Shown here: positions 2,969 to 22,497 of the stretch, one piece after another
Numbering within the stretch: position 1 is the first letter of the stretch
Layout of the letters: the number at the start of each line of letters is the position of its first letter
Assembly (NCBI GenBank): GCA_021232515.1
Contig: JAJPOQ010000077.1
Location: 3,732-27,731, forward strand
Length of the DNA: 24,000 nucleotides
Source: Lentisphaeraceae bacterium
GTDB lineage: Bacteria; Verrucomicrobiota; Lentisphaeria; Lentisphaerales; Lentisphaeraceae
Direction: 5' to 3'
The notes under the pieces: model-generated
The model's input: the letters and a program-made list of their open reading frames with translations, nothing else
What the model was told of the DNA's origin: nothing
The model's database searches: none
Program-made: the position numbers and the translations under genes

Positions 2969-2972
2969 GAGT

Positions 2973-6601: not shown

Positions 6602-6681
6602 ATAAAATTAAATAAATTCCTTATATCAGCTTGTCTTGATCAAACAATGAGTAGATTAGCTGCAAAATTTTAGGAAACTTT

Positions 6682-7563
6682 ATGACCATTTTAGGAAGTC
6701 ACAGCGGTAAATTTCATGCCGACGACGTTTTTGCTATAGCAGCTTTAAGTTTATTGCACCCAGACTATAAGATTCTTCGTTCTAGAAAATCTGAAGACTG
6801 GGCCAAGTGCGACTATTTAGTAGACGTCGGCGGTGTTTATGACCACGCCAATAAAATCTACGATCACCATTTTAAAAATGGACCAACTTATGAAGACGGT
6901 CTACCTATGTCGTCAATCGGTCTAGTTTGGAAACACTATGGTAGTGAGATTTGCCAATCACCAGAAATAGCTGAGCGCATTTGCTGGAAGTTTATTCGTA
7001 CACTTGATGCACATGACAACGGTATAGAACTGACGACTAAAGCTGATAATGGCTTTAGTGTTGGCGATGTTTCTGTTAGTTCATTGGTAGCTGTTATGAA
7101 TCCTACAGACTTTTCAAAAGCTGACGAAGTGTTTGAGCAAGAAGTAAATAGAGCACGTGAAGTTCTTAAAGCTTACATTGCTAAAGCTCAAAAATGGTTT
7201 GCTAGTAAGCAAGAAACTGTTGACTCGATAAAACGAGCTAATGCCGAAGGAAAACGCTACTTGGAAGTCAGTGAAAACTGTAACTTTATGGAGCACTTAC
7301 TTTCAACAGAAGAAGGTAAAAATATTCTTTTTGTCATGTATCCAAATGACGAAAAATGGTATGCTCGAACAGTTTCTGAAAAACTGGGAAGTTTCAACGA
7401 TAGAAAGTCATTTCCAAATGAATGGGCTGGACTTAGAGATGAAGGATTCTCTGAAATTGCGAATATTCCAGACGGAGTTTTCTGTCACCACTCATGCTTT
7501 ATCTGCGGATCGCACAGCCATGAATCAACTACCAAGTTAGTTCAGCAGGCAATCCAAGCATAA
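6682..7563 (+). CDS. MYG1-family (UPF0160) metal-dependent hydrolase/exonuclease homologue
   Basis: 293 aa. The N-terminus GSHSGKFHADDVFAIAAL matches the hallmark GTHxGxFHADE motif of MYG1/UPF0160. Further His-rich motifs follow (DHHF, DAHDNG). AGGAAA sits 12 nt upstream of the ATG. Confidence 0.85.
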   Translation: MTILGSHSGKFHADDVFAIAALSLLHPDYKILRSRKSEDWAKCDYLVDVGGVYDHANKIYDHHFKNGPTYEDGLPMSSIGLVWKHYGSEICQSPEIAERICWKFIRTLDAHDNGIELTTKADNGFSVGDVSVSSLVAVMNPTDFSKADEVFEQEVNRAREVLKAYIAKAQKWFASKQETVDSIKRANAEGKRYLEVSENCNFMEHLLSTEEGKNILFVMYPNDEKWYARTVSEKLGSFNDRKSFPNEWAGLRDEGFSEIANIPDGVFCHHSCFICGSHSHESTTKLVQQAIQA

Positions 7564-7595
7564 AAAAAATCACTTCAAAAAATGAAGTAGTTTTT
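7562..7595. terminator. Weak candidate bidirectional terminator between convergent MYG1-like and apaG genes
   Basis: A-tract (7562-7569), stem ACTTCA (7572-7577), loop AAAAA, stem TGAAGT (7583-7588), T-tract (7591-7595). The stem is only 6 bp and AT-rich. Confidence 0.35.
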
Positions 7596-7615
7596 AATAA
7601 CCCTTATGTGGAAGT

Positions 7616-8020
7616 CTAAGTTAGGCTTCCCATATCTGCATTTGTCGCTAAGTAAAATCTAGCAACTTCAACTTTGATTACGTCTCCATCTTCTCGTTCA
7701 AAGATGTAGTAACCTTCCATTGTTCCAAATGGTGTATCTAAAATACTAAAACTATCGTATTCATAAAATTCTCCAGGTTTCAAAGTCGGAGTTTCTCCAA
7801 CTACGCCACAACCTCGTACTTCATGCTCATCCCCTTCTGCATTGATAATTTTCCAGTATCGACTTTTAAGTGTAACATCGATCTCAGATTCATTGTGAAT
7901 GATGATGTGATACGAGAATAAGTAGCGGTTTTGCTCAGGAGAAGAATGATCAGACTGGTACGATGGCAATGCGCGCACTCGAACCTTCTCTGTAACTACT
8001 TCTGATGAAATCATATCCAT
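7616..8020 (-). CDS. apaG: ApaG (DUF525) protein
   Basis: 134 aa. Characteristic ApaG segments: RYLFSYHIIIHNESE, SRYWKIINAEGDEHEVRGCGVVGETPTLKPGEFYEYDS, TPFGTMEGYY. RBS AAGAGG lies 5 nt upstream of the ATG. Confidence 0.9.
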   Translation of the reverse strand: MDMISSEVVTEKVRVRALPSYQSDHSSPEQNRYLFSYHIIIHNESEIDVTLKSRYWKIINAEGDEHEVRGCGVVGETPTLKPGEFYEYDSFSILDTPFGTMEGYYIFEREDGDVIKVEVARFYLATNADMGSLT

Positions 8021-8216
8021 ATAAACCTCTTATTCGCCAAATCAGTGTAAACGATCTTCCCGTTGTTACTAATAATAATTGGAATTGATTCCGAGTGCAA
8101 GAGTAGAGTTGAAAATCCTTATATTTGTTACAGAAAACAACTTTTTCCACATTTAAACATGGCATGCCACATGCGGTGATGAATGAGCGGATCAATAGAT
8201 AACAGAGAGACAAGCA

Positions 8217-9287
8217 ATGGGAATATTTTCATTTTTCAGCCGGTTATTCGGCGGTGACAGTTCAGAATCAGTCAGTGTTAAGGTTGCTGACATCAAAGAA
8301 GAAAAACCTGTAGAAGAAAACTCAGAAGGTGCTGAGAATTCCGACACTCAAGAACCAGAATCTCTTTGGTGGGAAAATCCAATAATAAAAGATGAACACA
8401 TTCAGTTTGATGCAGTTACAAATACAGTTCTCTACGACGAATTACATAGAAGTATCAAAGAACACCGACTAGAAATAATCGAAATACCAGACAATCTTTC
8501 GGCCATACTAGGCATACTTCACAAAAAGAATTTTCAGTACCCTGAAATAGTAGATCTTGTAGAACATAGTCCTGTATTGACTGGTGACTTTCTCTCAGTT
8601 GCCAACTCAGCCGCTTTTAGTCGTGGTATAGCTATACGAAACTTAACTCAAGCTCTTCCGCGTCTTGGTAAACAATCTATTCAGTCCATTCTCTTTCTAA
8701 ATGCATCGAAACTCTCTGTCCCAGATAGTCCCATTTTCACAAATGTCGCCGAAGAAGTTATCACTGAAAGTCAAGCTGTTGCAAAAATAGCTAGAGTTCT
8801 TTCTCGTCAGTTTGGCCTCGATCCAAATGAAACTTTCCTTGCTGGATTACTTCACAACGTTGGTAAGCTTGGTTTATTGAAGCAGATCTCTATCCACTAT
8901 GATCTACCCGACGATATCGACGTAGAGTACCACCAGTCGCTCTTTAAGAACATTTTCCCTATATTCCACAACGAAGCCGGGAAAATCATCGGACAGTACT
9001 GGAAATTGGATTCTAGGACCATTGAAGTGATCCATATGCATAACAATCTTCAGAAACTAATCGACATGGACGCTGACAGCGAAACCCTAAGGCTGGCTTC
9101 ACTAATTAACCTCTCGGTCTATATAAGCCGTATTCTAGGCTTCAGTAACAGTCTTCATGAAGGAGCCGACCTCTTCAATCAAGGTGCTTGTCAGGTACTA
9201 GGTTTTGAAGACACGCCAGCAAACCGCAAGGTTCTCAACAAGATGTACGACGATATAATCGAAGTTGAGGAAGAAGCCGTAGCTTAA
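8217..9287 (+). CDS. HDOD-domain signalling protein with acidic disordered N-terminus
   Basis: 356 aa. The core matches the HDOD pattern (LPRLGKQSIQSILF..., FLAGLLHNVGKLGLL). The first ~50 residues are E/S-rich and low complexity. Its stop overlaps the convergent downstream gene by 4 nt. Confidence 0.85.
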   Translation: MGIFSFFSRLFGGDSSESVSVKVADIKEEKPVEENSEGAENSDTQEPESLWWENPIIKDEHIQFDAVTNTVLYDELHRSIKEHRLEIIEIPDNLSAILGILHKKNFQYPEIVDLVEHSPVLTGDFLSVANSAAFSRGIAIRNLTQALPRLGKQSIQSILFLNASKLSVPDSPIFTNVAEEVITESQAVAKIARVLSRQFGLDPNETFLAGLLHNVGKLGLLKQISIHYDLPDDIDVEYHQSLFKNIFPIFHNEAGKIIGQYWKLDSRTIEVIHMHNNLQKLIDMDADSETLRLASLINLSVYISRILGFSNSLHEGADLFNQGACQVLGFEDTPANRKVLNKMYDDIIEVEEEAVA

Positions 9288-10384
9288 ATTTTAAGTTCGA
9301 ACTCTTCTGAAGCTACTTTTGATCCGTTTACTTGAATGTCGATGAGATATTTGCCCGAATAATATTTTCTGGTAGATATCTCACGAATTGAGTGTTTTCC
9401 ACTAAATTTTCTTTTTCCTGCAAAGCTACATTTCGACAGTTTGAATACTTTTGGACTGAGTTTTCCATTTGCTTTCATGTGGTGAATCACAAAATCCACC
9501 ATGAATAACCCTTCTTTCTCTGTTTCCAGCTCAAATGAAAAGCTTAAACTTTCTCCAAGATTGACCGTTTTTGAATTCAGTTGAAAGTGACGACACGCTA
9601 TTTCTTGATCCACAGCATAGCCACAAAGTTTCAATGCCGCTTTATTCCCCTGCTTAAATAAACTTCTCAGAGCATGTTTGGTCAGCCAAGGATCAACATT
9701 TTCTTTCTGCCATCTCTCCAAAGTTTCAATGACAATATCAGGGTGATCTTTTGAAATGTCATTTAAATTATTCGCAACAGATCGACGCACATAAAGCTGT
9801 TTATCGTCTTTGAGTATTTCCAAAACTTTAAGAACTGGACTTGGGTCTTTGACAAAACAATGAAGACGAATACTGAGGGGAAGGCGCGGCCTGCAACCTT
9901 CTGAAGCTAGACGACGAACATGATAGTTTTCATCTCGAGCCCAGAGTAACATTTGCTCCATAGTCTTCTTCGGGTATTTTTGTAAAAAGTAACGAATGCT
10001 GAACTCTGAAGTAAATCTCTTAGTGACTTCTCTCTGTAAAACCATCGATTCATCAAAGTAATCCAAACCTTTCGAAGCAGAAAAAGCTGCAACTGGCATA
10101 TAAATAAAACCACTAAAACCTTCTAAGTCTGACTGAGGAAGTTCCTCACCAAGTGAACTTCTTAGTATTTTCGACGCCTCACAAAAATTCTCAGGCAAGT
10201 ACAAACCAAGAGTTTCAGCGATACGAAGGTTTCTCTCTGAAAATGACAATTCAGAAAAACCGTCAAAGACAGTCTTCAAGAATGATGAATCATCAAACTT
10301 TGCCCATGTCTTTTTGATAGATTTAGCTAAAGCTTCGATGTTTTCCTTATTGAAAACATCTTTCAAGAGAAACCTTTCAGCCAC
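9284..10384 (-). CDS. DNA alkylation repair protein (HEAT-like repeat glycosylase family, AlkC/AlkD type)
   Basis: 366 aa. Diagnostic repeats HVRRLASEGCRPRLP and YVRRSVANNLNDISKDHPD. The extra ~100 aa beta-rich C-terminus is consistent with the Ig-like domain of AlkC-type proteins. The start lies 3 nt after the stop of the upstream ORF. Confidence 0.8.
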   Translation of the reverse strand: MAERFLLKDVFNKENIEALAKSIKKTWAKFDDSSFLKTVFDGFSELSFSERNLRIAETLGLYLPENFCEASKILRSSLGEELPQSDLEGFSGFIYMPVAAFSASKGLDYFDESMVLQREVTKRFTSEFSIRYFLQKYPKKTMEQMLLWARDENYHVRRLASEGCRPRLPLSIRLHCFVKDPSPVLKVLEILKDDKQLYVRRSVANNLNDISKDHPDIVIETLERWQKENVDPWLTKHALRSLFKQGNKAALKLCGYAVDQEIACRHFQLNSKTVNLGESLSFSFELETEKEGLFMVDFVIHHMKANGKLSPKVFKLSKCSFAGKRKFSGKHSIREISTRKYYSGKYLIDIQVNGSKVASEEFELKI

Positions 10385-10387
10385 AAA

Positions 10388-10969
10388 CTACTCGCGAATC
10401 ATGCTGTACTTCGACCAAAACTCAACAGACTCTTTATATGCTTTTCGATCGATAACCACGCCGCTACCACCTTCTTCAACGCCAAGAGCATTTCTCATAG
10501 CAGTGATCGGACGCATAGGTTCAACCTCAACCGTCGCTGCACCACCAATGGAAACAATCGCCCAATCAGCTTCAACAACATCACCTTCTTTTTCCATTTG
10601 CTCACGGCTGTAAAGAATCAAGTGAACGAAATCCGCTACAGGAGTTTCTATCCCAGTAATCCACTCGACAAGAACTGCGACTTCATTATCGTTTCTAGCT
10701 TCGTAGTCTGTGTGTAAAGTTGCACCATTTTCCAAAGCCCACTTTTTATCGACTGTCAGACATTTCAAAGAAGGGAACTTATATGAACCATCTTCGTTTT
10801 TATTTGATATAGCTAAGATCTTGCAGAAGTCGGCGTAACCTGGAAACTCTTGAACAGGATTGTCGGCAAGAGAAATAAGTTCTTCAACTATTTCTGGAGT
10901 AACTTTAGTGCCATGGAAATTTTGATCATATTGCCTTTCGGCAAATTCACACATTTGAATAGTCATCAA
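10388..10969 (-). CDS. Conserved hypothetical protein (possibly DUF3228-like, unverified)
   Basis: 193 aa uninterrupted ORF with a globular, non-AT-biased composition, tightly coupled to the alkylation-repair gene. I recognise no catalytic motif. The family guess is from memory only. Confidence 0.65.
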   Translation of the reverse strand: MMTIQMCEFAERQYDQNFHGTKVTPEIVEELISLADNPVQEFPGYADFCKILAISNKNEDGSYKFPSLKCLTVDKKWALENGATLHTDYEARNDNEVAVLVEWITGIETPVADFVHLILYSREQMEKEGDVVEADWAIVSIGGAATVEVEPMRPITAMRNALGVEEGGSGVVIDRKAYKESVEFWSKYSMIRE

Positions 10970-11115
10970 TCATCCTTTATAGATTATCCAAATAAGATAA
11001 AAGTAATGATGTTTGATTCAATGGAGATATCAGAAGTTATCAACTTTTTAACAGGGTATATTATATATTTCTTTTTTATATATATAAATTTATTATTATT
11101 ATACTCTGTTGATTG

Positions 11116-11124
11116 TGTGGATAA
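11116..11124 (-). promoter_or_regulatory. Perfect DnaA-box consensus match (TTATCCACA on the minus strand)
   Basis: The plus strand reads TGTGGATAA at 11116-11124. Near-consensus boxes: TTATCCAAA (10984-10992, + strand, 1 mismatch), TGTTGATAA (11195-11203, = TTATCAACA, 1 mismatch) and TTATCAACT (11037-11045, 2 mismatches). Confidence 0.45.
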
Positions 11125-11227
11125 CTCTATAAGTCGTTGGTTTTTCTACAGTCTTAAATCGTTTTTTTGCTGTTAGTAGATCTGATGGTAACTCTGTTGA
11201 TAACCTTATTGCCATAGTTATTGATGG

Positions 11228-11966: not shown

Positions 11967-13361
11967 TTATCGTTTAATTAGGGACTTTTCAGTTTGAATA
12001 GGATTGCTGTCATTTAGTTGTTCAAGCTTCTTACTGAGTTCGCTTTTTAGTTTTTCAATGACTTGCTTATACTCTGGGTTATTTATCTGATTACTGAGCT
12101 CATGTGGGTCTTTTTCTAAGAGATAGAACTCGTACTCACTTCGTTTATTTAGTTGATTCACTCGTGATTGGTACTTTTTGTTTTTTCTAGCTAACTCGAC
12201 CCATGATGAGGCTATGTCATTTTTCTTTAAGGATGGATCTTCTTGCATTTTTAAGGCTTGAGACAAAGTGAGGTTTGAAGTCACTTCAGAAGAGTTTGGG
12301 TTATAGATAAGAGTGTATTGCTTGTTGCGTATAGTACGTATAGGGAAGACTCTTTTCTTATTATCAATGATGTTCACGTTTGTGAAAGCACCATAGACAT
12401 ATTCATTTATTTCTTGAGTATCGCCTTTTAAAATAGGTAGAAAGCTTTTGCCATCGAAGTCATTTTCTTTTATTTCGTAACCTGCAACTTCAGCAAGAGT
12501 TGGCGCTATATCGCTAGTTGCTAGAAGCTGATTGACTTGTGAGACTGAAGTTTTTGGCCAATGAGCCACTATGCCGGTATTTAGACCAGTTTTATAGCAT
12601 GTCCATTTTGAAAAAGGCAACTGTGAACCTTGTTCACTACAAACTATAAAGATGGTGTTTTCCCAGAGTTTCATGTTTATCAGTTCGTTTTTCATTCGAC
12701 CAACAAGAGAGTCAAAGTTATTTACTTCAGCATAGTATGAAACGAGAGTTTCTCGCAGTTCTGGAGTATCGATCCAGTAGGGAGGAATGGTCAATTCGTC
12801 AGCTTTAAATTTACTTTTATCACCTGTTGTGAATGGAGCGTGACTGTCATTTGAAGCTATGAATACACAAAATGGCTTATCACTTTTAAGTGATTTTTGG
12901 ATATAGTCTTTGGTGGTTTTTATGTAGAAGTCGTTTTGGTCTACTTTTTTACTTTTGCCTGGAAAGAAATCAAATGGGTAAGCTTTGGTTGGTCCAACAT
13001 GAGACTTGCCAATGAGAGCAACGTTGTAACCTAAAGGATTTAGATAGTGGGGTAAACTTTTGGTAATTGGTTTGGATTTCGAGTGATTTGCTAAAGTCCC
13101 AGTTCTCCATGGAGATCTACCACTGTAAAGTTCTTGACGAAATGGAGCACACATAGCGACTGAGCAAAAAGCGTTATTAAAGATCACGCCATTTTTACCT
13201 ATTTCATCAATGCTTGGAGTTTTAGAGTCTATGCTGCCGAAAATACCCCAATGGTCTTTGTTCATATCATCAGCGAGTAAAAAGACAATATTTGGCTTTT
13301 TAGAGTCATTTGCTAAGCACAACGACAAAGGTAAAAGCATGATTACTATTAAGGTTTTCAT
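11967..13361 (-). CDS. Secreted sulfatase (arylsulfatase A family, Cys-type)
   Basis: 464 aa. Signal peptide, then PNIVFLLADDM metal-binding start. Formylglycine motif C-A-P-F-R followed by LYSGR (MCAPFRQELYSGR). GKSHVG motif. Confidence 0.9.
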   Translation of the reverse strand: MKTLIVIMLLPLSLCLANDSKKPNIVFLLADDMNKDHWGIFGSIDSKTPSIDEIGKNGVIFNNAFCSVAMCAPFRQELYSGRSPWRTGTLANHSKSKPITKSLPHYLNPLGYNVALIGKSHVGPTKAYPFDFFPGKSKKVDQNDFYIKTTKDYIQKSLKSDKPFCVFIASNDSHAPFTTGDKSKFKADELTIPPYWIDTPELRETLVSYYAEVNNFDSLVGRMKNELINMKLWENTIFIVCSEQGSQLPFSKWTCYKTGLNTGIVAHWPKTSVSQVNQLLATSDIAPTLAEVAGYEIKENDFDGKSFLPILKGDTQEINEYVYGAFTNVNIIDNKKRVFPIRTIRNKQYTLIYNPNSSEVTSNLTLSQALKMQEDPSLKKNDIASSWVELARKNKKYQSRVNQLNKRSEYEFYLLEKDPHELSNQINNPEYKQVIEKLKSELSKKLEQLNDSNPIQTEKSLIKR

Positions 13362-13440: not shown

Positions 13441-13480
13441 GATTTCAGCAAAAAAACTAAAAAAAATGTTTTTTGAAATC
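13441..13480. promoter_or_regulatory. Inverted repeat GATTTC-(AGC)-A7 ... T6-GAAATC centred in the divergent sulfatase / GH-like promoter region
   Basis: GATTTC at 13441-13446 and GAAATC at 13475-13480 are exact reverse complements, each flanked inward by an A or T run. As a result each divergent gene sees TGAAATC in the same orientation. Confidence 0.3.
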
Positions 13481-13540
13481 ACACCGAGTAGTAGCTGCGA
13501 CATTTAATCATTGCTTAACCAAATTATAAGGAGTGAAGCA

Positions 13541-16339
13541 ATGGTTATGAATAGATTCAGGAATTTATTATTTCTGTTAGTTAGTCTTTTATTCTCAGTG
13601 AATACTATGGCTGGAATAAACACCTTTTCCGTGTCGGGAAAAAATGTTTACTTTAATAATAAAGAATTCAAAGTTATAGGTTTGAGATGTTCGAACGCAC
13701 TCATAAGTGAAGACGAAACTCAAGAGCTAATTGACAACTTGGATGTTTTTAAGTCTTACGGTGTAAATACCATCAGTGTTTTTGTCATGGGTTCGCGTTT
13801 TGGCGATATAAAAGGTTATAATCCAGATAGTTCTTTAAATATGACTTATGCAAATCGTCTTGGTCGTATCATCGAAGAAGCTGATAAAAGAGGCATAATC
13901 ATACTGGTTGGTTGTCTTTATTGGAGTACTTCAACAGCTAAAGCTGACTTAGGTCACTGGAAGCAAGAAGACGCCGATAAAGCTGTTTATAATACGGTTA
14001 AGTGGTTAAAGGATAACAACTATACAAACGTATTTGTTGATCCTGACAACGAAGGTATGGCAGCAAAAGCAACGGGTTGGGACATCGGCTCAATGATTGA
14101 AGCAGGTCATGAAGCTAATCCAAACATGGTGCTTGGTTATAATAAGTCTGGAACTCCTCCGGCAAATGCAGATATACTTCTTCACCACAGTCCAAAAGAT
14201 GGCAGCCGCCCTTGGATTCAAAGTGAAGGTTCTCCAGGCAGTACTCCGGGTGGATACTGGGGAAGTTACAGTAAGGAAGGTGGTTACTACAACTACATTC
14301 GTATAGGTCGCTATAACGACAATATGAAGAATGCTCAGATCAATCAAACTGATAGTGATGTGAAAAACCAAAACGGTTACATGCTTGCTTCAACGTATAT
14401 CCAGTGTGCTCCTGTAGAAGGTATTGGCGGTCCATTTATGAATCCGGGTGGTGAAGCAAATAATCCAGATATAAATGACAGTGTTAAAACTCTTCAAAGT
14501 GACATCGGTATTCTTTGGTGGCTAAAACACGTTAAAAATAAATACGGTGCGTGGAATCCGGAATCCGCTCCTGTAAGTGCGACATTTAAAGAAGTAAACG
14601 GTTTAGTTTCTATGGAAGCTGAGAGTGCAACTCAACAAGAGTGGACTCCGAGTAACGACAGCAGCACAAGTGGTGGTATAAAAATGATCAACCCTGGTGC
14701 TTCGACAAATGACATGACCTTTAAGATAAAGTTTGCCAAAACTGGTAAGTACTATGTTTGGTTCCGTCATGCTAAACCTAGTTATGCTGATGGAGACAAC
14801 AACGACTGTATCGTGACTTTTGATGGCAAGGAATTAAAAGTTGGAAATGGAAACTCAGTTATAGGTATGGGAACTCATCAGAAAAGTTTAAAGTTTGAGT
14901 CTCGTCCAAAGTCACACCACTCAGAAGATCGTAGTTATCATCCATTTTTTGAAGTAAATTCAGCAGGAGAATATGACTTTGTCGTTAACAGTAGATCTGA
15001 CTTAAGTGCAGAGTATATCGTTGATAAGATAGTCTTGATTCATGCTGATCGTGGTGGAAATGACAGTAGTCCAGCAGTTCTTGGTGGCTTAACTAGTCAT
15101 GGTCCTGACGAAACAAGAAACACTCCAGCTCCACCAACAAATGAAGCTCCTACAATTAACTTTGTAACTCCGGCAAATAATTCAATTATCGAAGAAGGTG
15201 CAAGTCTTTACATAAAGGCGAACGCTTCAGATTCAGACGGAAGCATAAACAACGTTAAGCTTTATGTAAATGGCGCTTTTATAAGAAAGGAAAATAACGC
15301 TCCATATGAGTGGGGCTCACCAAGTCAAAGTGACGCTTTCCTTAAGAATATGGCAGCTGGTAGTTACACTCTAAAAGTTGAAGCGGAAGACAACCAAGGT
15401 AAGAAGTCTAGCAAGACTATTTCAGTTACTGTAAAAGCTGAGAGTTCATTTCCTGGAAGTCTTATTTCTGACCAAGTTGGCGATGCAAATGCAGACGCAA
15501 GCTACGATGACGGTGTTTTTACACTAAGTGCTGCGGGAAGCGACATCTGGAATAACAGCGACGAATTCGGTTTTGTACACCAAAACTGGAGTGGCGACTT
15601 AACAATTGTTGCTAAAGTTCAGTCTTTAACTGAAACTCATGAGTGGTCGAAGGCCGGTATCATGATCAGAGAGTCTTTAGGAGAAAGTTCAGCTCATGTT
15701 ATGCTTGTTGTGACTCCTGAGAATGGTGTTTCATTTCAGTATAGAAGTGTTGCAGGCTACAAGTCTTACAGTAAAAAAGTACAGGGAGTGACAGCTCCTC
15801 AGTGGCTTAAGCTTGTGAGAACAGGGAATACTTTCCGTTCATATTTTTCTACGGATGGTGGAAGCTGGATGCCGTTAGGAAAAACTGAAGTAGATATGTT
15901 TGAAGACGTTAAAACTGGTCTTGTTTTGACTTCTCATGATTCATCTAAAGCGGCGACTGCGACATTCAGCGGATTGGAGCTTAAAGATCCACAAGATGAA
16001 CTTATCATTGAGAAATATGTACTCGTTAATGCTGACACAGATGCAGATGTTAAGGAAGTATACTACAATGATACAATAGATCTAAATGAGTATGGCAACA
16101 TCAGTCTAAAAGTGACTTTAAACGACACACCAGGAAGCGTCGTTTTCAAAGTAAATGGTTCACAAGTTCAGATTGAAAACAATGCAGGCTATTTTATCCA
16201 AGGTAACACTGGATCAGATGTCGATGCATGGTTGATAGGTGCTGGAACTCATACTGTAGAAACTATGCCAAAGTCAGAAAAAAATGGTGCTGGTTTAAGC
16301 GGTGAAACACTGAAGTTAAAACTAAATATAGTTAAGTAA
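13541..16339 (+). CDS. Secreted multidomain glycan-active protein (clan GH-A-like TIM barrel + CBM-like + Ig-like + ConA/DUF1349-like + C-terminal beta-sandwich)
   Basis: The ORF track starts at TTG 13511. I prefer ATG 13541, preceded by AAGGAG (13528-13533) with a 7 nt spacer and giving signal peptide MVMNRFRNLLFLLVSLLFSVNTMAG. The N-terminal ~340 aa have alternating beta/alpha character, with VFVDPDNEG (candidate NE acid/base) and IQSEGS (candidate nucleophile). Next come a GLVSMEAES-type CBM-like domain, an Ig-like domain (VKLYVNGAFIRKENNAPYEWG...GSYTLKVEAEDNQG), a ConA-like domain (DIWNNSDEFGFVHQNW...WSKAGIMIRES...WLKLVRTGNTFRSYFSTDGGSW) and a final beta-sandwich. Confidence 0.85.
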   Translation: MVMNRFRNLLFLLVSLLFSVNTMAGINTFSVSGKNVYFNNKEFKVIGLRCSNALISEDETQELIDNLDVFKSYGVNTISVFVMGSRFGDIKGYNPDSSLNMTYANRLGRIIEEADKRGIIILVGCLYWSTSTAKADLGHWKQEDADKAVYNTVKWLKDNNYTNVFVDPDNEGMAAKATGWDIGSMIEAGHEANPNMVLGYNKSGTPPANADILLHHSPKDGSRPWIQSEGSPGSTPGGYWGSYSKEGGYYNYIRIGRYNDNMKNAQINQTDSDVKNQNGYMLASTYIQCAPVEGIGGPFMNPGGEANNPDINDSVKTLQSDIGILWWLKHVKNKYGAWNPESAPVSATFKEVNGLVSMEAESATQQEWTPSNDSSTSGGIKMINPGASTNDMTFKIKFAKTGKYYVWFRHAKPSYADGDNNDCIVTFDGKELKVGNGNSVIGMGTHQKSLKFESRPKSHHSEDRSYHPFFEVNSAGEYDFVVNSRSDLSAEYIVDKIVLIHADRGGNDSSPAVLGGLTSHGPDETRNTPAPPTNEAPTINFVTPANNSIIEEGASLYIKANASDSDGSINNVKLYVNGAFIRKENNAPYEWGSPSQSDAFLKNMAAGSYTLKVEAEDNQGKKSSKTISVTVKAESSFPGSLISDQVGDANADASYDDGVFTLSAAGSDIWNNSDEFGFVHQNWSGDLTIVAKVQSLTETHEWSKAGIMIRESLGESSAHVMLVVTPENGVSFQYRSVAGYKSYSKKVQGVTAPQWLKLVRTGNTFRSYFSTDGGSWMPLGKTEVDMFEDVKTGLVLTSHDSSKAATATFSGLELKDPQDELIIEKYVLVNADTDADVKEVYYNDTIDLNEYGNISLKVTLNDTPGSVVFKVNGSQVQIENNAGYFIQGNTGSDVDAWLIGAGTHTVETMPKSEKNGAGLSGETLKLKLNIVK

Positions 16340-16345
16340 ATTCTT

Positions 16346-16375
16346 GATTACCCAGTTTTAAGAAACTGGGTAATC
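16346..16375 (+). terminator. Strong stem-loop (13-bp perfect stem) directly downstream of the GH-like gene
   Basis: GATTACCCAGTTT (16346-16358), loop TAAG, AAACTGGGTAATC (16363-16375), followed by the T-rich run TCTTGTTGTTGTG. It begins 7 nt after the stop codon and ends 24 nt before the sigma-factor ATG. Confidence 0.65.
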
Positions 16376-16399
16376 TCTTGTTGTTGTGTGGGAGAGTAT

Positions 16400-16939
16400 A
16401 TGTCGGATAAAATCGACTTAACAGAATTTAAAAATATCGTCTTGGAGTATGAACATAGCGTTCGTACTTCAATTCGTGTTATGGGGATTCGCGAAGGTTA
16501 TGTCGATGATTTGGCGCAAGAAACATTTATCTTAGCTTATAAAAAGTTTCATACTTTTGATCAAAGTAGAAGTTTGCGCGCCTGGTTATTGAGTCTAGCT
16601 AAGAATCTAGTTTTAAACGAAAGAAGAAAAGTAAAAAGACGACAGGCACTGCTGCATGAGAAATACTCTTTGTTGGTTTCAGATAACTTAGAAGCTAATC
16701 TTGATGGCCTTGATTTTGGATATGATAAAAATGTGCTGGATACTTGTTTAGATAAACTTCCAGAGAACCATCGAAAACTAGTGACACTGCGGTATTTCAA
16801 AGAAAAGAATTCTAAAGAAATAGCCCAAGTGATGAACAAAGAGGCTAGTAACATTCGCCATATGCTTAGGCGTATACTAGAGAGTTTGAAGTTGTGTGTT
16901 TTTCGACAATCAGATGAACTGAGGGGAAACAGTTTATGA
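16400..16939 (+). CDS. ECF-type RNA polymerase sigma factor (sigma-70 family, regions 2 and 4)
   Basis: The ORF track starts at GTG 16388. ATG 16400 (MSDKIDL...) is preceded by GGGAGAG. Region 2 signature: DDLAQETFILAYKKFHTFDQSRSLRAWLLSLAKNLVLNERRK. Region 4 HTH: LRYFKEKNSKEIAQVMNKEASNIRHMLRR. Its stop overlaps the downstream start (ATGA). Confidence 0.9.
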   Translation: MSDKIDLTEFKNIVLEYEHSVRTSIRVMGIREGYVDDLAQETFILAYKKFHTFDQSRSLRAWLLSLAKNLVLNERRKVKRRQALLHEKYSLLVSDNLEANLDGLDFGYDKNVLDTCLDKLPENHRKLVTLRYFKEKNSKEIAQVMNKEASNIRHMLRRILESLKLCVFRQSDELRGNSL

Positions 16940-18114
16940 GTCCAGATTCGGAAAAGGTTTTTGACCGTATCATTGAAGGCAAATTGCGAGATGAGGATTT
17001 ACTCTATCTCGAAAATCTTGAAAAGAGTCATCCTGAAGAATTTCAGCAGATGATGCAGTTGGTAGCTTTTGAAGAGTCTATATCTATAAACCTGAAAGAA
17101 GAGCGTTCACCTGAGTTATTTTCAGACTTGGTGATTGATGAGATAAAGCGTGAAAAGCTTCATCAAACTCAGAGTTTCGCCAATAAAGTAGTTAAAAAAA
17201 TAGACGCAAACCCGAGAAGCTCTCGTCGAAGAGTGACTCGTAAAGTAAAGAAGAAGTCTAGTTCATTTCCATTCCTTTTGGCAGCTATAGTTTTGATTGG
17301 TTTAGCAGTCGGAGCTTTCTTTGTCTTAGAGAGTAAATCACCTGAAGTTTACATAACACAAGGCCAGTTTAGTAATGGCTCTCAAACTTACTCTAGTGGC
17401 CAAATCTTACCTCAAAACTTAAAGTTTAAAGCAGAGAGTGATGTTGTCGTGAGCCTGTTTGATGGTACCAAAATTGGTATAGATAAAGCTTCAGAATTGA
17501 ATTTTGATGTAGCCAATAAAAACATATATCTTCATAAAGGTAAACTAACTGCAAGTGTTCAGAAACAAGCAGATGGCGCCCTTAAGTTTAATACACCTTA
17601 TGCGATAGCAGAAATACTTGGAACTGAGTTTTCTCTAGAAACCGAAAATGAAAAATCGTGGCTAGATCTTACAGAAGGTTCGATTCGTTACTCTTCAAAA
17701 AATAGCGATAAGTCTATACTCATGAAATCTGGTGAGGAAGCCTGTGCTATAGAAAAGGGAGATCTTGCTTTAGCTAAAGAAGAGTTTGTAAAGTTACTCA
17801 CTCTAGTGGATGCAAAAACGGGTAAAGACTTAAAAATCCTTGAGGACCATAGTACTATCAGTTTGAGTGAGTACCGTCGGTCTTTTTCGATAAAGGCTTA
17901 TGCTCAAAAACGCGAAAAAATAGCTTTTTATATCAATGGCAAAAAAGTTGATAAAGAAGAAGCAAACCCTCCATACATCCTAACAGGAAATGCCCCAGGG
18001 TCTGAGGCTGTTTACCCTTGGAAAGTAGGTCCCGGAAATTATGAAATAGTCCTCAAAGTTCTTTCTGGAAAATCCAATTATATGAAGAAGTTCTCTGTAA
18101 AAATTGTGAAATAA
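16936..18114 (+). CDS. FecR-family transmembrane anti-sigma factor with C-terminal Ig/CBM-like domain
   Basis: 392 aa. Cytoplasmic N-terminal helical domain, basic stretch (RSSRRRVTRKVKKK), single TM helix (FPFLLAAIVLIGLAVGAFFVL). FecR-type beta domain (LFDGTKIGIDKASELNF...LHKGKLTASV...FNTPYAIAEILGTEFSLE). Then a ~105 aa C-terminal domain similar to domains of the adjacent secreted protein. 4-nt start/stop overlap with the sigma gene. Confidence 0.85.
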   Translation: MSPDSEKVFDRIIEGKLRDEDLLYLENLEKSHPEEFQQMMQLVAFEESISINLKEERSPELFSDLVIDEIKREKLHQTQSFANKVVKKIDANPRSSRRRVTRKVKKKSSSFPFLLAAIVLIGLAVGAFFVLESKSPEVYITQGQFSNGSQTYSSGQILPQNLKFKAESDVVVSLFDGTKIGIDKASELNFDVANKNIYLHKGKLTASVQKQADGALKFNTPYAIAEILGTEFSLETENEKSWLDLTEGSIRYSSKNSDKSILMKSGEEACAIEKGDLALAKEEFVKLLTLVDAKTGKDLKILEDHSTISLSEYRRSFSIKAYAQKREKIAFYINGKKVDKEEANPPYILTGNAPGSEAVYPWKVGPGNYEIVLKVLSGKSNYMKKFSVKIVK

Positions 18115-18172: not shown

Positions 18173-18352
18173 ATGTATAGGCTGAATATGCAGCAAGAAA
18201 TAATCAGAGTTAAAAGGCCAGACTTTTCATCATTGAATCAAGTTAAAAAGGCCAAGGTAGTAAAAGATTTCTTTTATCCAAAACCTAAAGAAAAAAAGAA
18301 ACTTAGTCAGACTTTAGTGGATGGCGTAGTTTACATCGATTTAAAGAATTAA
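18173..18352 (+). CDS. Unannotated 59-codon ORF (hypothetical), convergent with and overlapping the fic stop
   Basis: Translated by hand: MYRLNMQQEIIRVKRPDFSSLNQVKKAKVVKDFFYPKPKEKKKLSQTLVDGVVYIDLKN. It falls just below the size cutoff of the ORF track and fills an otherwise empty 234 bp gap. It has no convincing RBS and no recognised family. Confidence 0.2.
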   Translation: MYRLNMQQEIIRVKRPDFSSLNQVKKAKVVKDFFYPKPKEKKKLSQTLVDGVVYIDLKN

Positions 18353-19413
18353 GAACGCTGACGCTGTATCTCCCTAACTTCGTCAACGATATTTAAAGTC
18401 TTTTGCCATTGTTGATAAATGAATGCTTCAAACTTTTTTATATCACCAGTCATTTCTAATGTATTGTTCTCATCTTTTAATCGAAAGTTTTTAATGAGGT
18501 CTAAATATTCAAATCTAGATTGGCTATCAATTGTGATTGGTGGAAAGCCTTGTTGAATAACTTTTAAGTTTGCTAGTAGTCTTGCAAGTCTGCCATTTCC
18601 ATCAAAAAATGGGTGTATGGAGGTAAAAGATAGCATGACCCATGTATAGATCTTTACGGCTTCAGTTGATGTTTCTGGAGCGAATAAAGAGTTATAGGTT
18701 TCTAGCCACGACTTCATCAATAGAGGAATTTTTTTTGGAGGTGGATAAAGTATGTACTCTTTACCCCAGTAAGCACCATTTTCTTTCCTTTTCCAGGCAC
18801 CTACAGGGTTTTCTATATCAAATGGTGGGTTAATGATAGTTGTTTTATGAAGGTTTAATATATCTTCTTCCATTAGGTCTTTATTATGAGCAATCTGGTA
18901 TATGAGTTTGATTGCATTTGCGTGCCCACGTATTTCATCATGTTCACGAAGACTTTTGCCGGAAATGGTTAAGCCTTCCTTTAAGATGAAAGATGTTTCG
19001 CCTAGAGTAAGAGTATTTCCTTCTATTGATGTTGAATCGTGAGTCCATTCATCACGAATTCTCTGCTTGAGTATATCTTTTAAGTCATCATCTAAGTTAT
19101 CAAGGAATAAACCAACCTTAGGACTTTTCTTTAATGAGTGGTAAAGAGCTTGGCGGATTTGTTTGAGAAGTTCTCGTGAGTTCTCAATTTTGAGTGAATG
19201 CTTTAGTTGGTTTAGCTGTTGGTCACTTAAAGAAAAACTTAGTTGTTTATCTAATTTTCCGGTTTTAGTAAGCTCAAAAACTTTATGGGACTTTATTAAA
19301 ACATTGACTGCTGTATTTACAGCAGCTTGTTGTTTTCCATTCTTTTTTATGGCCTCAAAGAGTTCTTGAGTAATTTTTAAGCTAAACCTTTTCATATAAT
19401 TACTATAAATCAT
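18349..19413 (-). CDS. Fic-family protein (class II architecture: N-terminal inhibitory helix plus Fic core)
   Basis: 354 aa. Canonical Fic motif HPFFDGNGRLAR (HPFx[D/E]GNGRxxR). Upstream S-T-S-I-E-G matches the autoinhibitory [S/T]xxxE[G/N] motif. An alternative start is at Met7 (19395). Confidence 0.9.
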   Translation of the reverse strand: MIYSNYMKRFSLKITQELFEAIKKNGKQQAAVNTAVNVLIKSHKVFELTKTGKLDKQLSFSLSDQQLNQLKHSLKIENSRELLKQIRQALYHSLKKSPKVGLFLDNLDDDLKDILKQRIRDEWTHDSTSIEGNTLTLGETSFILKEGLTISGKSLREHDEIRGHANAIKLIYQIAHNKDLMEEDILNLHKTTIINPPFDIENPVGAWKRKENGAYWGKEYILYPPPKKIPLLMKSWLETYNSLFAPETSTEAVKIYTWVMLSFTSIHPFFDGNGRLARLLANLKVIQQGFPPITIDSQSRFEYLDLIKNFRLKDENNTLEMTGDIKKFEAFIYQQWQKTLNIVDEVREIQRQRS

Positions 19414-19488: not shown

Positions 19489-20919
19489 CTACTGAGCTTT
19501 GATTGGGCCTTTGTGATTGATCTTTTCTGCGCCAGTTGCTTTACCAGGCATTTCTCTGTGTGGATTCCTCTCACCTTTCTTGGCTTTTGGTGAACCACGG
19601 TCGAGAGATGGGCTTTCTGGAACATTGTCACCAGTCTGTTCAGTCCAATCGGCGAGTTGCTGACGCATCTTCTTGAGCATTTCTTTATACTCTGGATTAT
19701 TCACAACGTTATTCAATTGGTGAAAGTCTTTACCGACATGGTAGAGCTCTTCTTCTGGACACGGGTTTCTAAATACGTTGCTTTGTGCAGCATTTAGTTT
19801 TCCATCCTTATAAGCTTCAGCCAGTTCTTGGTAACTTGCTTCCACACACCAAAGTCTGCGGTCTGGAAAATTGTTTTTAATGTAGAGGAAGTCGCCCATT
19901 CTAACCATGCGTTCATGAGCTTGATTGACATGCCAATTGTGTTCAGCAAAGACGACTTCTCTAACTGTCGCTTTAGGATCTTTGAGAATAGGCGTAAAAC
20001 TTACTCCTTGGATTCTTTCGTCTGCTTTTAGACCAGCAAGTTCTACTATAGTACTAGCAACATCTATAGAGCTGATAAGACTATCTGTAACGAGTCCTTT
20101 AGTGATCATTTTAGGGTAATGGACGATAAAAGGAGTTTTTATACCGCTGTCATATAGTCTTGTTTTGGCACGTGTAAATGGGCGACCGTTATCAGACATA
20201 ACGATGATAAATGTATTCTCAAAAACTTCTTGTTTCTTAAGTTCTTTAACGACTTCACCGATGTAGTAGTCAAAACGGCTTATTTCATGGTAGTAGCCAG
20301 TAAACTCTTTGCGAATTTCAGGTCCATCAACCATGTAAGGAGGGATGATCACATCCTTTGGATCATAGATGGGTGCTTTGTCATTTATCTCAAACTTCTT
20401 ATGAGCATCTGTAGAGGCAAACCACATGAAGAATGGTTTATCTTTTGGTCTTTTTTCTAGAATAGGAACCCAGTCTTCTTCTTTTCCAGGGCCTTTGCCA
20501 TTTGAGATCTTGTTGAAAGAATTTTTTATATTGCCAATATGAGTTTTACCAGAAATAACAGAGTAGTAACCACTCTCTTTAAGCAACTTAGGAAACTTTA
20601 CTTGTTCTACTGGTAGGTTTGTATGGAGTTCTGCAGCACCTGTATTGTGAGGATAACGGCCGGAGATGATACTACAACGACTTGGGCTACAGCTACTAAT
20701 TGTTAAGTAAGCGTTGGTAAACTTCATACCGTCATTTGATAACTGGTCGATATGTGGAGTCTTGATTACGGGATGACCGTAGGCACCAAGGTCTTCAAAG
20801 CCTAGATCATCTGCTATAAAGAAGACAAAGTTAGGTTTTTCAGCAGAAAATCCGACAGTGGATAAGAGCATAGTAAATATAATAATAAGTTTCATGAACA
20901 CGCCTAAGTTTAGTTTCAT
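19489..20919 (-). CDS. Secreted sulfatase (Cys-type)
   Basis: 476 aa. Signal peptide. PNFVFFIADDLGFEDLG start. Formylglycine motif CSPSR followed by IISGRYPHNTG. GKTHIG motif. The true start may be the second Met (20895, MKLIIIFTMLL...). Confidence 0.9.
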   Translation of the reverse strand: MKLNLGVFMKLIIIFTMLLSTVGFSAEKPNFVFFIADDLGFEDLGAYGHPVIKTPHIDQLSNDGMKFTNAYLTISSCSPSRCSIISGRYPHNTGAAELHTNLPVEQVKFPKLLKESGYYSVISGKTHIGNIKNSFNKISNGKGPGKEEDWVPILEKRPKDKPFFMWFASTDAHKKFEINDKAPIYDPKDVIIPPYMVDGPEIRKEFTGYYHEISRFDYYIGEVVKELKKQEVFENTFIIVMSDNGRPFTRAKTRLYDSGIKTPFIVHYPKMITKGLVTDSLISSIDVASTIVELAGLKADERIQGVSFTPILKDPKATVREVVFAEHNWHVNQAHERMVRMGDFLYIKNNFPDRRLWCVEASYQELAEAYKDGKLNAAQSNVFRNPCPEEELYHVGKDFHQLNNVVNNPEYKEMLKKMRQQLADWTEQTGDNVPESPSLDRGSPKAKKGERNPHREMPGKATGAEKINHKGPIKAQ

Positions 20920-20988
20920 GCAAGAAACTTAGTGTGAGTCATTAAAAAATCCAAACAGAAAAATCAACTAGAATAAGAACTCAGCGAT

Positions 20989-21201
20989 TTAACCATTTTT
21001 TTGTTTAGGCTCTACTCCAGAACCAGCGCATTGAACACATTTTGTTTCTTTGCTGTATACCCAAATTGATCCTATACCTTGGCATTTTGAACAAAGTGCA
21101 GGCTCTGTAGAAAGTTCGAAACTTGGTCTTTTTGTGTCTAACATTTTATATACCCTTTTGTGCCTTTTAGTAAAAATACCCATTTTGAAATCGGAATACA
21201 A
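20989..21201 (-). CDS. Small DnaJ-CR-type zinc-finger protein
   Basis: Two CxxCxGxG motifs (CSKCQGIG and CVQCAGSG) 12 residues apart, as in the cysteine-rich domain of DnaJ. The real start may be the internal ATG at 21144 (MLDTKRP...), preceded by AAGGG with an 8 nt spacer, giving 51 aa. Confidence 0.55.
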   Translation of the reverse strand: MYSDFKMGIFTKRHKRVYKMLDTKRPSFELSTEPALCSKCQGIGSIWVYSKETKCVQCAGSGVEPKQKNG

Positions 21202-21276
21202 GTTTTGTAAACCGATTTCTTTTACTTGATAAAATGTAGTTTAAAATTGTAAAAGTTAAATATTAACTAGTAAAAT

Positions 21277-22497
21277 TTATGATAAGGCTTGTTTGAGTGA
21301 CACTATTGGTAATTCAAAGCGAGTAGCAAATGCTTCTGCTTGATCTTTTGAAAGTCTTTCGCCATTTGCTGCCAGCATAGTTATGCAAAGTGCAGATGGA
21401 TAAAGTGAAGCTTTATCTGTTAGGCCAATTGCTCCTTCAAGAACATTTCTTGGACGGTCGATTTCACTACTAAGTATCTGAACTGCAGCAACGTTACCGG
21501 GACAAATCCAGTCGCCAACACTGTATTCAACATTGTGAAACATCTCTATAGACTTAAGTAGTGCTTTGGCTGAGAAGTCGTTCTCTTCAACTTCACGGTC
21601 TCTGACTTGAACTAGGTAGCGTCTGCCTTCTTCATCAAGCTGACTGTTGACTACAGGAGCCGGTATAGCAAGTCTCTCTGCGACGTGGTTTTCAACTGCA
21701 AGCAAACAGCCGGAACGAGCCATGCCCATAGCAAATGTTAGGACTTCTTCAGTAAGCTTTTCAGTTGCAACGACTATAGCAACTTCAGTTCTTTCTGGTG
21801 ATTCGTCAACTATAAGAGCAGCCGAACCTTTTTTGAGAGATGCTAAAGCCCACTCTTCTTGAGAGTCTACTTTTTCAGCACGAACTTCGTCTGGAATATT
21901 TAAAGAAAGGACACCTGATTCATCTTGTATATGTCTTGAGTTGAAGTCGACTTCGATATTCACTTTATCACCTTTTGTAATTTTCCCTAAGTGCGTGCGA
22001 TTTAGAGTTTCTGGAATAAGAGAAACAGAAAATGCTTCGCTGTTTCTATCTGTAATTGTTAGGCTAACGCCATCGACTGAAACACAGCCTCTTATTGGCA
22101 TGAGGTCACGAAAGTTTTTAGGTAGTGAGAACCAGATCTTTACTTGGTCTGAACCTTCGACACTGGTCAGTTCAACCAGGTCTGCAATGAAGTCTACATG
22201 ACCAAGGATGTTGTGACCACCGTTGTATTCGCCATGTTTTAGCGGAAGATCGACGTGAACCTTATCGCCCGAAACGATTGTCGGTAAAGTGGTTCTTTTG
22301 AGAGTTTCAGGCCAAACGTCAAAACTTACTTTTTGATCATCAAATTCGGTAACAGTCAGGCAGACTCCGTTTATACCAACTGAATCGCCAGTTTTAACGA
22401 GTGAGCAGACGTCACTAGCAACTGTAAGTTTGTAACCGTTTTGGTCGCCTTCATTGGCAACAACTATTCCTTCTCTGGTGATGATACCGCTATACAT
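21277..22497 (-). CDS. ribE: Riboflavin synthase (alpha chain) fused to a degenerate DHBP-synthase (RibB)-like domain
   Basis: Residues 1-~200: two lumazine-binding repeats (MYSGIITREG..., GDSVGINGVCLTVTEF, GGHNILGHVD, GCVSVDGVSLTIT, LIPETLNRTHLG). Residues ~215-406 align by eye to RibB (LKKGSAALIVDESPERTEVAIVVATEKLTEEVLTFAMGMARSGCLLAV; PGNVAAV; ALCITMLAANGERL; PIVSLKQAL) but lack the conserved acidic and His catalytic residues. Confidence 0.85.
   Translation of the reverse strand: MYSGIITREGIVVANEGDQNGYKLTVASDVCSLVKTGDSVGINGVCLTVTEFDDQKVSFDVWPETLKRTTLPTIVSGDKVHVDLPLKHGEYNGGHNILGHVDFIADLVELTSVEGSDQVKIWFSLPKNFRDLMPIRGCVSVDGVSLTITDRNSEAFSVSLIPETLNRTHLGKITKGDKVNIEVDFNSRHIQDESGVLSLNIPDEVRAEKVDSQEEWALASLKKGSAALIVDESPERTEVAIVVATEKLTEEVLTFAMGMARSGCLLAVENHVAERLAIPAPVVNSQLDEEGRRYLVQVRDREVEENDFSAKALLKSIEMFHNVEYSVGDWICPGNVAAVQILSSEIDRPRNVLEGAIGLTDKASLYPSALCITMLAANGERLSKDQAEAFATRFELPIVSLKQALS

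Follow-up and report, generated by a model that had tools for sequence, protein, structure and literature searches.

The window analysed here, a 24,000 nt stretch of contig JAJPOQ010000077.1 from an uncultured Lentisphaeraceae bacterium, carries three genes on the forward strand that specify a secreted multi-domain enzyme, a sigma factor of the extracytoplasmic function (ECF) type and a FecR-type anti-sigma factor. The enzyme gene (nt 13,541–16,339) codes for 932 aa, an assignment based on the open reading frame (ORF), its ribosome-binding site (RBS), Pfam matches and 932-aa gene calls in public assemblies. The sigma factor gene (nt 16,400–16,939; 179 aa) was recognised by its Pfam Sigma70_r2 and r4_2 domains, and the gene for the single-pass anti-sigma factor (nt 16,936–18,114; 392 aa) by its ORF, Pfam matches and a database relative. 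The three genes are arranged head to tail, with a 60 nt gap between the enzyme and sigma genes that contains a strong hairpin, and a 4 nt overlap between the 3' end of the sigma gene and the 5' end of the anti-sigma gene. The local gene order is sulfatase (−), enzyme (+), ECF sigma (+), anti-sigma (+), Fic-domain gene (−) and sulfatase (−). Identical copies of the anti-sigma protein occur on marine metagenome scaffolds, and its sole close database relative (82% identity) carries the annotation 'MAG: FecR domain-containing protein [Lentisphaeraceae bacterium]'. The anti-sigma factor and the enzyme end in related immunoglobulin (Ig)-type domains, and the gene trio recurs in other bacteria.

By sequence comparison, the last ~110 aa of the anti-sigma factor (residues 285–392, nt 17,788–18,111) are homologous to the last ~110 aa of the enzyme (residues 822–932, nt 16,004–16,336), as claimed in an original prediction made by eye from the sequence, which had also placed both domains correctly. 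BLASTP alignment of the two C-terminal domains (CTDs) gave an E-value of 6e-7, with 32% identity over 91 aa, and their Smith-Waterman score of 93 stood well clear of that for shuffled sequences (27 ± 4.6; z = 14.2), none of 2000 shuffles scoring as well. Both are Big_7-like and are detected by a hidden Markov model (HMM) of the family, the enzyme copy with a score of 112.5 (independent E-value (i-E) 1e-34) and the anti-sigma copy with 92.6 (i-E 1.5e-28). Profile–profile comparison, which the prediction had suggested as a check, was also positive: a profile of nine anti-sigma CTDs aligned by hhalign to one of eight enzyme Ig sequences with a probability of 99.1% (E 5.9e-19). The internal Ig-like domain of the enzyme (nt 15,149–15,433), proposed as a third relative, proved to be one, though a weaker one (z = 5.3 when compared with the anti-sigma CTD and 8.9 with the enzyme CTD; family HMM i-E 6e-9); it matches Pfam Big_7 (E 2.7e-16) and the Ig domains of PDB entries 9kvu and 9x9r. 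Both proteins do end in the residues IVK, to which attention had been drawn, but this adds no weight, as it is the usual last beta-strand of the family (consensus ...F.VV.).

The family itself is large. An exhaustive search by profile located the domain in at least 1468 cluster representatives (E ≤ 1e-3). It is usually repeated in tandem every ~115–125 aa, and in one protein of 5527 aa as many as 32 stretches were matched. A Pfam scan of 73 domain-bearing proteins showed that 34 carry the sorting tail of the type IX secretion system (T9SS; Por_Secre_tail) and that 21 reach the Big_7 model, the further partner domains in this sample including PKD, Kelch, alginate lyase, GH113 and lectin. A profile of the family built from 35 sequences matches the X1 'Fn3-like' modules of Clostridium thermocellum CbhA (PDB 3pdd, E 8.8e-7) as well as Ig domains of a chitodextrinase, neither of which was deposited as a binding module. 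Matches to Pfam Big_7 (PF17957) were returned for 13 of the 35 members taken alone (best 1.9e-5), while whole proteins reach 51 bits; the two window CTDs themselves have no Pfam match at threshold. The family shares the Big_7 core motifs (V.F.lnG...EN.APY..gD...W...G.H.l.A.p) with the Big_7/X1 modules of carbohydrate-active enzymes (PDB 3pdd, 3pe9, 9x9r, 9kvu), all matched by its profile, but is a longer variant (~110 aa compared to 70 aa) with an extra N-terminal strand (LVNADTDxDI). Searches of Pfam, NCBIfam and PDB sequences returned no recognised carbohydrate-binding module (CBM) family. On these relationships, the shared domain is best placed among Ig modules of the Big_7/X1 type, as a divergent member, and is a generic component from which many secreted proteins are built. 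In the literature searched, neither functional information on Big_7 nor a description of a Big_7-like domain on a FecR anti-sigma factor was found. A role for the terminal domain of the enzymes as a T9SS-like sorting signal was considered and rejected, since in Bacteroidota the domain is internal and is followed by a separate Por_Secre_tail.

The two neighbouring copies show no special kinship. When ranked by BLAST against ~455 family domain instances, the enzyme copy was the 121st of 322 matches for the anti-sigma CTD, and the anti-sigma copy the 365th of 426 matches for the enzyme CTD. Identity between the two is 31%, and each has many nearer relatives in the family. A neighbour-joining (NJ) tree of 95 instances placed 11 Lentisphaeraceae anti-sigma CTDs in one clade and four Lentisphaeraceae enzyme CTDs, from two catalytic families, in another that is not its sister, with the reservation that NJ trees on 110 aa are weakly resolved and are confounded by lineage and composition. 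Taken together, the identity, the ranks and the separate clades rule out a recent duplication between the window neighbours, and the clades indicate that within the Lentisphaeraceae the sensor did not recently copy its neighbour's module. The proposal that the anti-sigma factor reuses the binding module of its target enzyme is not supported: the domain belongs to a generic Ig family, and each copy has its nearer relatives elsewhere. Outside the Lentisphaeraceae, the CTDs of anti-sigma factors from high-GC genomes do not group with the Lentisphaeraceae ones and are as close, or closer, to the Ig domains of their own partner enzymes (50–53% identity in locus L034 and 28–32% in L015; both loci are described below). 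A recent duplication between neighbours may have occurred in L034, but an unrelated protein (P0134) is equally close to that anti-sigma CTD (56%), so that effects of lineage and composition are inseparable there from domain exchange. A single acquisition of the anti-sigma CTD fits the tree within the Lentisphaeraceae and fails across phyla.

The anti-sigma factor had been described as having the usual layout plus an extra CTD. Most of this stands: there is one transmembrane helix (residues 111–131, nt 17,266–17,328, read from the translation), a FecR domain (PF04773, E 3.7e-11; residues 165–250, nt 17,428–17,685) and the additional terminal domain, while the N-terminal part has no Pfam match. 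A basic stretch ahead of the helix indicates an N-in topology, which would place the FecR domain and the C-terminus in the periplasm. Single-sequence AlphaFold2 modelling predicted three helices in the N-terminal region with low confidence; for the whole protein the mean predicted local distance difference test (pLDDT) score was 50, and ~50 for the CTD, values unusable for a fold search. Gly229-Thr230 of the FecR domain (nt 17,620–17,625) is invariant in 11 aligned relatives, and FoxR self-cleaves at a Gly-Thr pair (G191-T192) in a beta-turn (PMC10328401). For the FecR domain there is a single relative of solved structure, a 'putative anti-sigma factor' (PDB 4m0n/4m0h) that aligns to residues ~200–310. 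The sequences of these two entries differ exactly at the residue aligned to Thr230, with Ala in one and Gly in the other, which hints that the depositors may have been probing self-cleavage.

In classical and Bacteroidetes FecR proteins, PF04773 is followed by PF16344 (FecR_C/DUF4974), which contacts the signalling domain of the transducer. PF16344 was not detected in the window anti-sigma factor at E ≤ 0.1, and the Ig-type domain stands in its position. The same combination of PF04773 without PF16344 is seen in P0002 and in all eight FecR relatives of a second subfamily (P0152–P0159, see below), while the next-best, distant FecR matches (P0160–P0162) carry PF16344. The absence of a TonB-dependent transducer, noted in the original prediction, was confirmed for the window by domain scans of ORFs of at least 100 aa, which contained no TonB_dep_Rec, Plug or STN domain; nor did the gene tables of the related loci L007, L010, L012, L014 and L015. 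Judged by its domains and gene neighbourhood, the anti-sigma factor is non-canonical, without the transducer-binding CTD and with no transducer gene nearby. Scans of genome and metagenome contigs for further relatives of the anti-sigma factor found none, the back-translated peptide patterns being too specific. The sigma factor shows Sigma70_r2 and r4_2 at E 3e-11, and its gene has the RBS GGGAGAG before the ATG at nt 16,400. In NCBIfam it comes nearest to TIGR02989 (Rhodopirellula/Verrucomicrobium family), with 111 bits and thus short of the cutoff of 124.55, and it is probably a member of an ECF group typical of the Planctomycetes–Verrucomicrobia–Chlamydiae (PVC) bacteria.

The enzyme comprises, in order, a Sec signal peptide, a TIM barrel resembling those of glycoside hydrolase (GH) clan GH-A, a beta-sandwich, the Big_7 domain, a DUF1349/ConA-like beta-sandwich domain (nt 15,521–15,985; Pfam DUF1349 E 3e-6, below the gathering score) and the terminal Ig-type domain. 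The catalytic-type N-terminal domain (residues ~25–342, nt 13,613–14,566), identified as a clan-GH-A-like (beta/alpha)8 barrel by AlphaFold2 modelling, Foldseek and invariant residues, belongs to a large unnamed family of 741 homologues, mostly stand-alone proteins of ~350 aa with 55–70% identity. These homologues (P0163–P0282) are mostly annotated as 'hypothetical', and a few have sub-threshold matches to GH5 (PF00150). Neither Pfam nor NCBIfam has a named family for this domain, and no sequence relative was found in the PDB even by profile. An AlphaFold2 model built on a 31-sequence alignment had a pLDDT of 87.9 and a predicted template modelling (TM) score of 0.90, and returned 485 PDB matches by Foldseek (E ≤ 1e-3), the best being clan GH-A TIM-barrel hydrolases (GH35, GH5, GH140, GH2) with probability 1.0 and TM-scores of 0.5–0.6. 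The motif D-x-D-N-E-G is invariant, with N146-E147 (domain numbering) directly after strand 140–145, and a second invariant glutamate, E205, lies in strand 203–206; N146, E147 and E205 are the same in all 31 sequences. We infer that the Asn-Glu pair and the later Glu correspond to the acid/base and nucleophile of clan GH-A. The GH-A-type model and these residues make it plausible that the protein is a secreted glycan-active enzyme, as had been proposed, and its N-terminal domain is a candidate for an undescribed glycoside hydrolase family.

Co-occurrence of the trio in other genomes, raised as a further check on the original prediction, was found in several settings. A scaffold from the same sample (L007) carries a paralogous triad consisting of a 937-aa enzyme, a sigma factor and a 405-aa FecR anti-sigma factor with the Ig-type CTD (hereafter FecR-Ig), with 5 nt between the enzyme and sigma genes. 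Beside it is a second, divergent set specifying a sigma factor, a 446-aa FecR-Ig protein, a DUF5060 enzyme and a sulfatase. This part of L007 (nt 4588–11,193) therefore holds two sigma/FecR-Ig modules of different subfamilies, placed back to back and with one hydrolase each, and looks like a duplicated and diversified regulatory unit. The second FecR-Ig subfamily has eight cluster representatives of 428–450 aa, all ending in the same type of domain and none with PF16344; their CTDs are detected by the 35-sequence profile (A3), the 3-sequence CTD profile (A1) being too narrow for them. Samples from different projects share a subfamily-2 cluster comprising sigma, FecR-Ig, a DUF5060 enzyme, a sulfatase and a ~1173-aa enzyme with DUF5060, Big_7 and CBM6/35 domains; sigma and FecR-Ig together with DUF5060 enzymes and a sulfatase are seen in L010, L012 and L014. 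The ~1173-aa enzyme ends in an Ig-type domain, and the DUF5060 enzyme directly after the anti-sigma gene (612–624 aa) is without one. Just upstream of the subfamily-2 cluster, a TIR-domain protein of ~795 aa is encoded in two independent samples (L012, nt 6634–9021; L014, nt 3577–5961).

The association was also approached from the enzyme side. Two proteins chosen only for carrying the Ig-type domain both proved to lie beside a sigma/FecR-Ig pair: P0017, a DUF5060 enzyme with three Ig-type domains, in L014, and P0149, which has the GH-A-like domain and two Ig-type domains, in L015 (63% GC), where the order is enzyme, sigma and FecR-Ig with 10 nt gaps. As controls, three stand-alone homologues of the catalytic domain had no sigma/FecR neighbour. 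Among 80 further metagenome loci of the catalytic-domain family, FecR-Ig was found in only two. The first (L034, 70% GC) encodes a sigma factor, FecR-Ig and a 1545-aa enzyme (nt 4830–9467, +) in which DUF5060, PKD, Ig-type, GH-A-like and second Ig-type domains are fused. The second (L061, 64% GC) encodes a 356-aa enzyme without an Ig domain, an amidohydrolase, a sigma factor and FecR-Ig. The fusion in L034 of GH-A-like and DUF5060 domains that are specified by separate, adjacent genes in L007 suggests that the two enzyme types act on the same substrate. The gene trio is thus conserved from Lentisphaeraceae with 38% GC to bacteria with 63–70% GC.

Overall, a FecR-Ig neighbour was present for four of four Ig-bearing enzyme homologues and for none of the 19 non-Ig homologues with enough flanking sequence (Fisher p 1.1e-4; ~5e-4 if L061 is counted as 1/20 non-Ig), counts that are to be read as suggestive because the loci are not all independent. 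The genomic association of FecR-Ig with Ig-bearing enzymes is nevertheless real. Across ~115 kb of sequence from Lentisphaeraceae loci, the domain was confined to anti-sigma factors and to large proteins encoded in the same clusters, these being enzymes and one unannotated ~1575-aa protein in L010.

Two features of the window DNA could bear on how the trio is expressed. The motif ATCACACC-N13-GACATTT (nt 13,478–13,505, +), 36 nt before the start of the enzyme gene, is a candidate sigma-dependent promoter. It occurs once in the window and, among 13 loci, is conserved only upstream of the paralogous enzyme gene of L007. The hairpin between the enzyme and sigma genes (nt 16,346–16,375, +), detected in a terminator scan, has a perfect 13-bp stem followed by a U-rich tract and a predicted folding energy of −20.9 kcal/mol (z −4.4). 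It is peculiar to the window locus, being absent from L007 and L015, where the genes are 5–10 nt apart, and is possibly a partial terminator or attenuator.

Sulfatase genes flank the trio on both sides, as had been predicted, and sulfatases recur in the related loci. The first (nt 11,967–13,361, −; 464 aa; Pfam Sulfatase E 6e-34, SGSH_C E 4e-18) is divergent from the enzyme gene across a 179 bp intergenic region, and the second (nt 19,489–20,919, −; 476 aa; Pfam Sulfatase E 7e-43) lies beyond a gene for a Fic/DOC-domain protein (nt 18,349–19,413, −; 354 aa), which comes directly after the anti-sigma gene. Gene callers also report a 54–59 aa ORF (nt 18,173–18,352, +), the end of which overlaps the end of the Fic gene; both are kept in the 82%-identical strain (L001/L002). 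That strain has an autotransporter gene (L001, nt 4722–9716, −; 1664–1688 aa) between the second sulfatase and the riboflavin genes, where the window has a short gap (nt ~20,920–21,276) with a 51-aa ORF, an indel difference between strains. The adjacent riboflavin gene of the window (nt 21,277–22,497, −) codes for a 406-aa fusion of riboflavin synthase (residues 1–192) and DHBP synthase (RibB; residues ~215–403), a less usual combination than RibBA. Near the left end of the window (nt 39–4736, −), three successive genes specify an outer-membrane efflux protein, a membrane fusion protein of the HlyD type and an ABC transporter that has a transmembrane region. This set, the first gene of which is a 587-aa ORF with a TTG start, resembles a type I secretion or efflux system.

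The explanation we favour, with some reserve, is that the trio forms a TonB-independent switch of the FecR-type ECF sigma/anti-sigma kind for a glycan-degrading operon, in which the Ig domain serves as input module, a role suggested by its placement where canonical FecR proteins bind their partner. An extracytoplasmic cue linked to the substrate of the enzyme would act on the periplasmic FecR-Ig part, and regulated proteolysis of the kind known from other FecR and ECF systems would then eliminate the anti-sigma factor. Once free, the sigma factor could transcribe the operon from a promoter upstream of the enzyme gene, inducing the enzyme and feeding back on the regulators, while the hairpin that follows the enzyme gene would hold the regulators at lower levels than the enzyme. 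The Ig domain would act as an input or docking module, and its ligand could be an oligosaccharide or else a protein, for which the Ig domain of the enzyme itself is a candidate.

Several observations weigh against this. The regulon is deduced from synteny alone, and in a scan of the window the upstream motif matched only the enzyme promoter region and was not found before the sulfatase genes; the motif is also unlike the textbook ECF −35/−10 pair. Transcription may end at the hairpin, in which case the sigma and anti-sigma genes would have no identified promoter and the auto-regulation step would be weakened. Residues 1–105 of the anti-sigma factor returned no Pfam match at E ≤ 0.1, DUF4880/class I anti-sigma domain (ASD) included. 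The loci are partly non-independent, the window and L007 being paralogues and L010, L012 and L014 orthologues. Finally, with an Ig family this generic and solved relatives that are linker-type modules, the CTD could be a mere spacer.

The original prediction went further and proposed direct glycan sensing. In this model the Ig domains of the anti-sigma factor and of the enzyme share a ligand, a sulfated glycan or oligosaccharide, and its binding by the anti-sigma factor frees the sigma factor. The homology of the two domains supports this idea, as does the finding that each type of locus combines FecR-Ig with sulfatases and with glycan enzymes that bear Ig domains, and the 50–53% identity between the anti-sigma CTD and partner Ig domains in L034 points the same way. 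There is also precedent in RsgI, in which CBM3b, PA14 or GH10 sensor domains bind polysaccharide (PMC10328401). Against it, the domain falls in the Big_7/X1 Ig group, outside the recognised CBM families, and tandem arrays on unrelated secreted proteins are common (34 of the 73 sampled have a T9SS tail). With 31% identity between the window copies and closer relatives elsewhere, a shared ligand specificity is not implied. A sensor of ~260 aa anchored in the inner membrane would reach periplasmic oligosaccharides only, not the polymer outside the cell, and L061 pairs FecR-Ig with an Ig-less enzyme. Direct glycan sensing is therefore one hypothesis among several, and we consider it unlikely in this strict form.

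Comparably improbable is a coincidence in which the Ig domain is a stalk or filler of no functional meaning and the FecR domain, or another factor, does the sensing. This would agree with the abundance of the domain (at least 1468 cluster representatives, up to 32 copies per protein), the diversity of its partners (Por_Secre_tail, PKD, Kelch, alginate lyase, GH113), the X1/Fn3-like modules of CbhA as its nearest solved relatives and the lack of a specific relationship between the neighbouring copies. It sits poorly with the retention of the CTD on FecR proteins in two subfamilies and in very distant genomes, with the near absence of FecR-Ig neighbours among non-Ig enzyme homologues, and with the restriction of the domain in ~115 kb of Lentisphaeraceae loci to anti-sigma factors and large proteins of the same clusters. 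Were the domain a spacer after all, the annotation 'FecR' in these phyla should still not be taken to imply iron or TonB signalling.

Protein docking, in which the anti-sigma Ig domain binds that of the enzyme or a shared periplasmic or outer-membrane protein and the partner acts as transducer, appears more doubtful. It would explain why the domain stands exactly at the canonical partner-binding position of FecR, why an Ig domain on the enzyme is tied to a FecR-Ig neighbour (4/4 versus 0/19, p 1.1e-4) and why the enzyme Ig domain is found at the extreme C-terminus in both Lentisphaeraceae enzyme families. An obligatory Ig–Ig pairing is argued against by L061, in which the enzyme homologue near FecR-Ig has no Ig domain, and by the subfamily-2 loci, in which an Ig-less DUF5060 enzyme (612–624 aa) directly follows the anti-sigma gene. 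It is quite improbable that the secreted hydrolase itself is a co-receptor, its engagement with substrate switching on the sigma factor through Ig–Ig docking or competition and without a TonB transducer, though if true this would amount to enzyme-coupled cell-surface signalling across PVC-type bacteria, involving two co-functioning hydrolase families.

Much of the degradation of sulfated glycans of marine and host origin is due to the Lentisphaerae and related bacteria, and the means by which they induce their numerous hydrolases and sulfatases are little understood. To our knowledge, they lack the SusC/SusD machinery that Bacteroidetes use for glycan sensing. Seen as a TonB-independent switch with an Ig input module, the combination of hydrolase, ECF sigma factor and FecR-Ig is a conserved, easily recognised and testable candidate for a glycan-sensing route in PVC bacteria. 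It also flags two enzyme families for one substrate, the unnamed clan-GH-A-like family (>700 homologues) and the DUF5060 type. That anti-sigma factors exchange their sensor domains is something specialists expect. The triad of enzyme, sigma factor and FecR-Ig in Verrucomicrobia, Planctomycetes and Lentisphaerae is undescribed in the literature searched, coverage of which is incomplete, making this weak evidence.

Of the known systems, the FecI/FecR/FecA type (E. coli Fec; FoxR and PupR of Pseudomonas) is similar in having an ECF sigma gene and, overlapping its end, the gene for a single-pass anti-sigma factor with a periplasmic FecR domain (PF04773); the conserved Gly-Thr of this domain in the window protein may correspond to the FoxR site. 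It differs in that the window locus has no PF16344, no gene for a TonB-dependent transducer and no iron-uptake genes, its anti-sigma factor ends in a Big_7-like Ig domain, and a glycoside-hydrolase-like gene leads the operon. The module probably works like FecR/ECF cell-surface signalling but fails two of its canonical features, PF16344 and a TonB-dependent transducer within the locus. Regulation of polysaccharide utilisation loci (PULs) in Bacteroidetes (ECF240, formerly ECF10) likewise places an ECF sigma factor and a FecR anti-sigma factor beside glycan enzymes and sulfatases (PMC7826278). The PUL anti-sigma factors, however, carry PF16344 and signal via a SusC-like TonB-dependent transporter, neither of which is present in the window, and the window sigma factor best matches the PVC-specific TIGR02989, below its cutoff. 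The Dma proteins form a further family of anti-sigma factors without the classical layout coupled to a transducer; they are reported to span both membranes and to regulate vesiculation, whereas the window protein has one transmembrane helix and a small soluble Ig domain.

The SigI/RsgI system of Clostridium thermocellum, in which the anti-sigma factors have C-terminal CBM3b, PA14 or GH10 modules that bind polysaccharide (PMC10328401), is a likeness of function only. The sigma-I and RsgI families are unrelated to ECF and FecR, the host is Gram-positive, and the RsgI modules are proven binders, whereas the Ig-type domain described here is a putative one. In concept, the two agree in that an extracytoplasmic C-terminal module of the anti-sigma factor is of the same kind as modules on the regulated enzymes, and in both, autoproteolysis followed by RseP cleavage is plausible.

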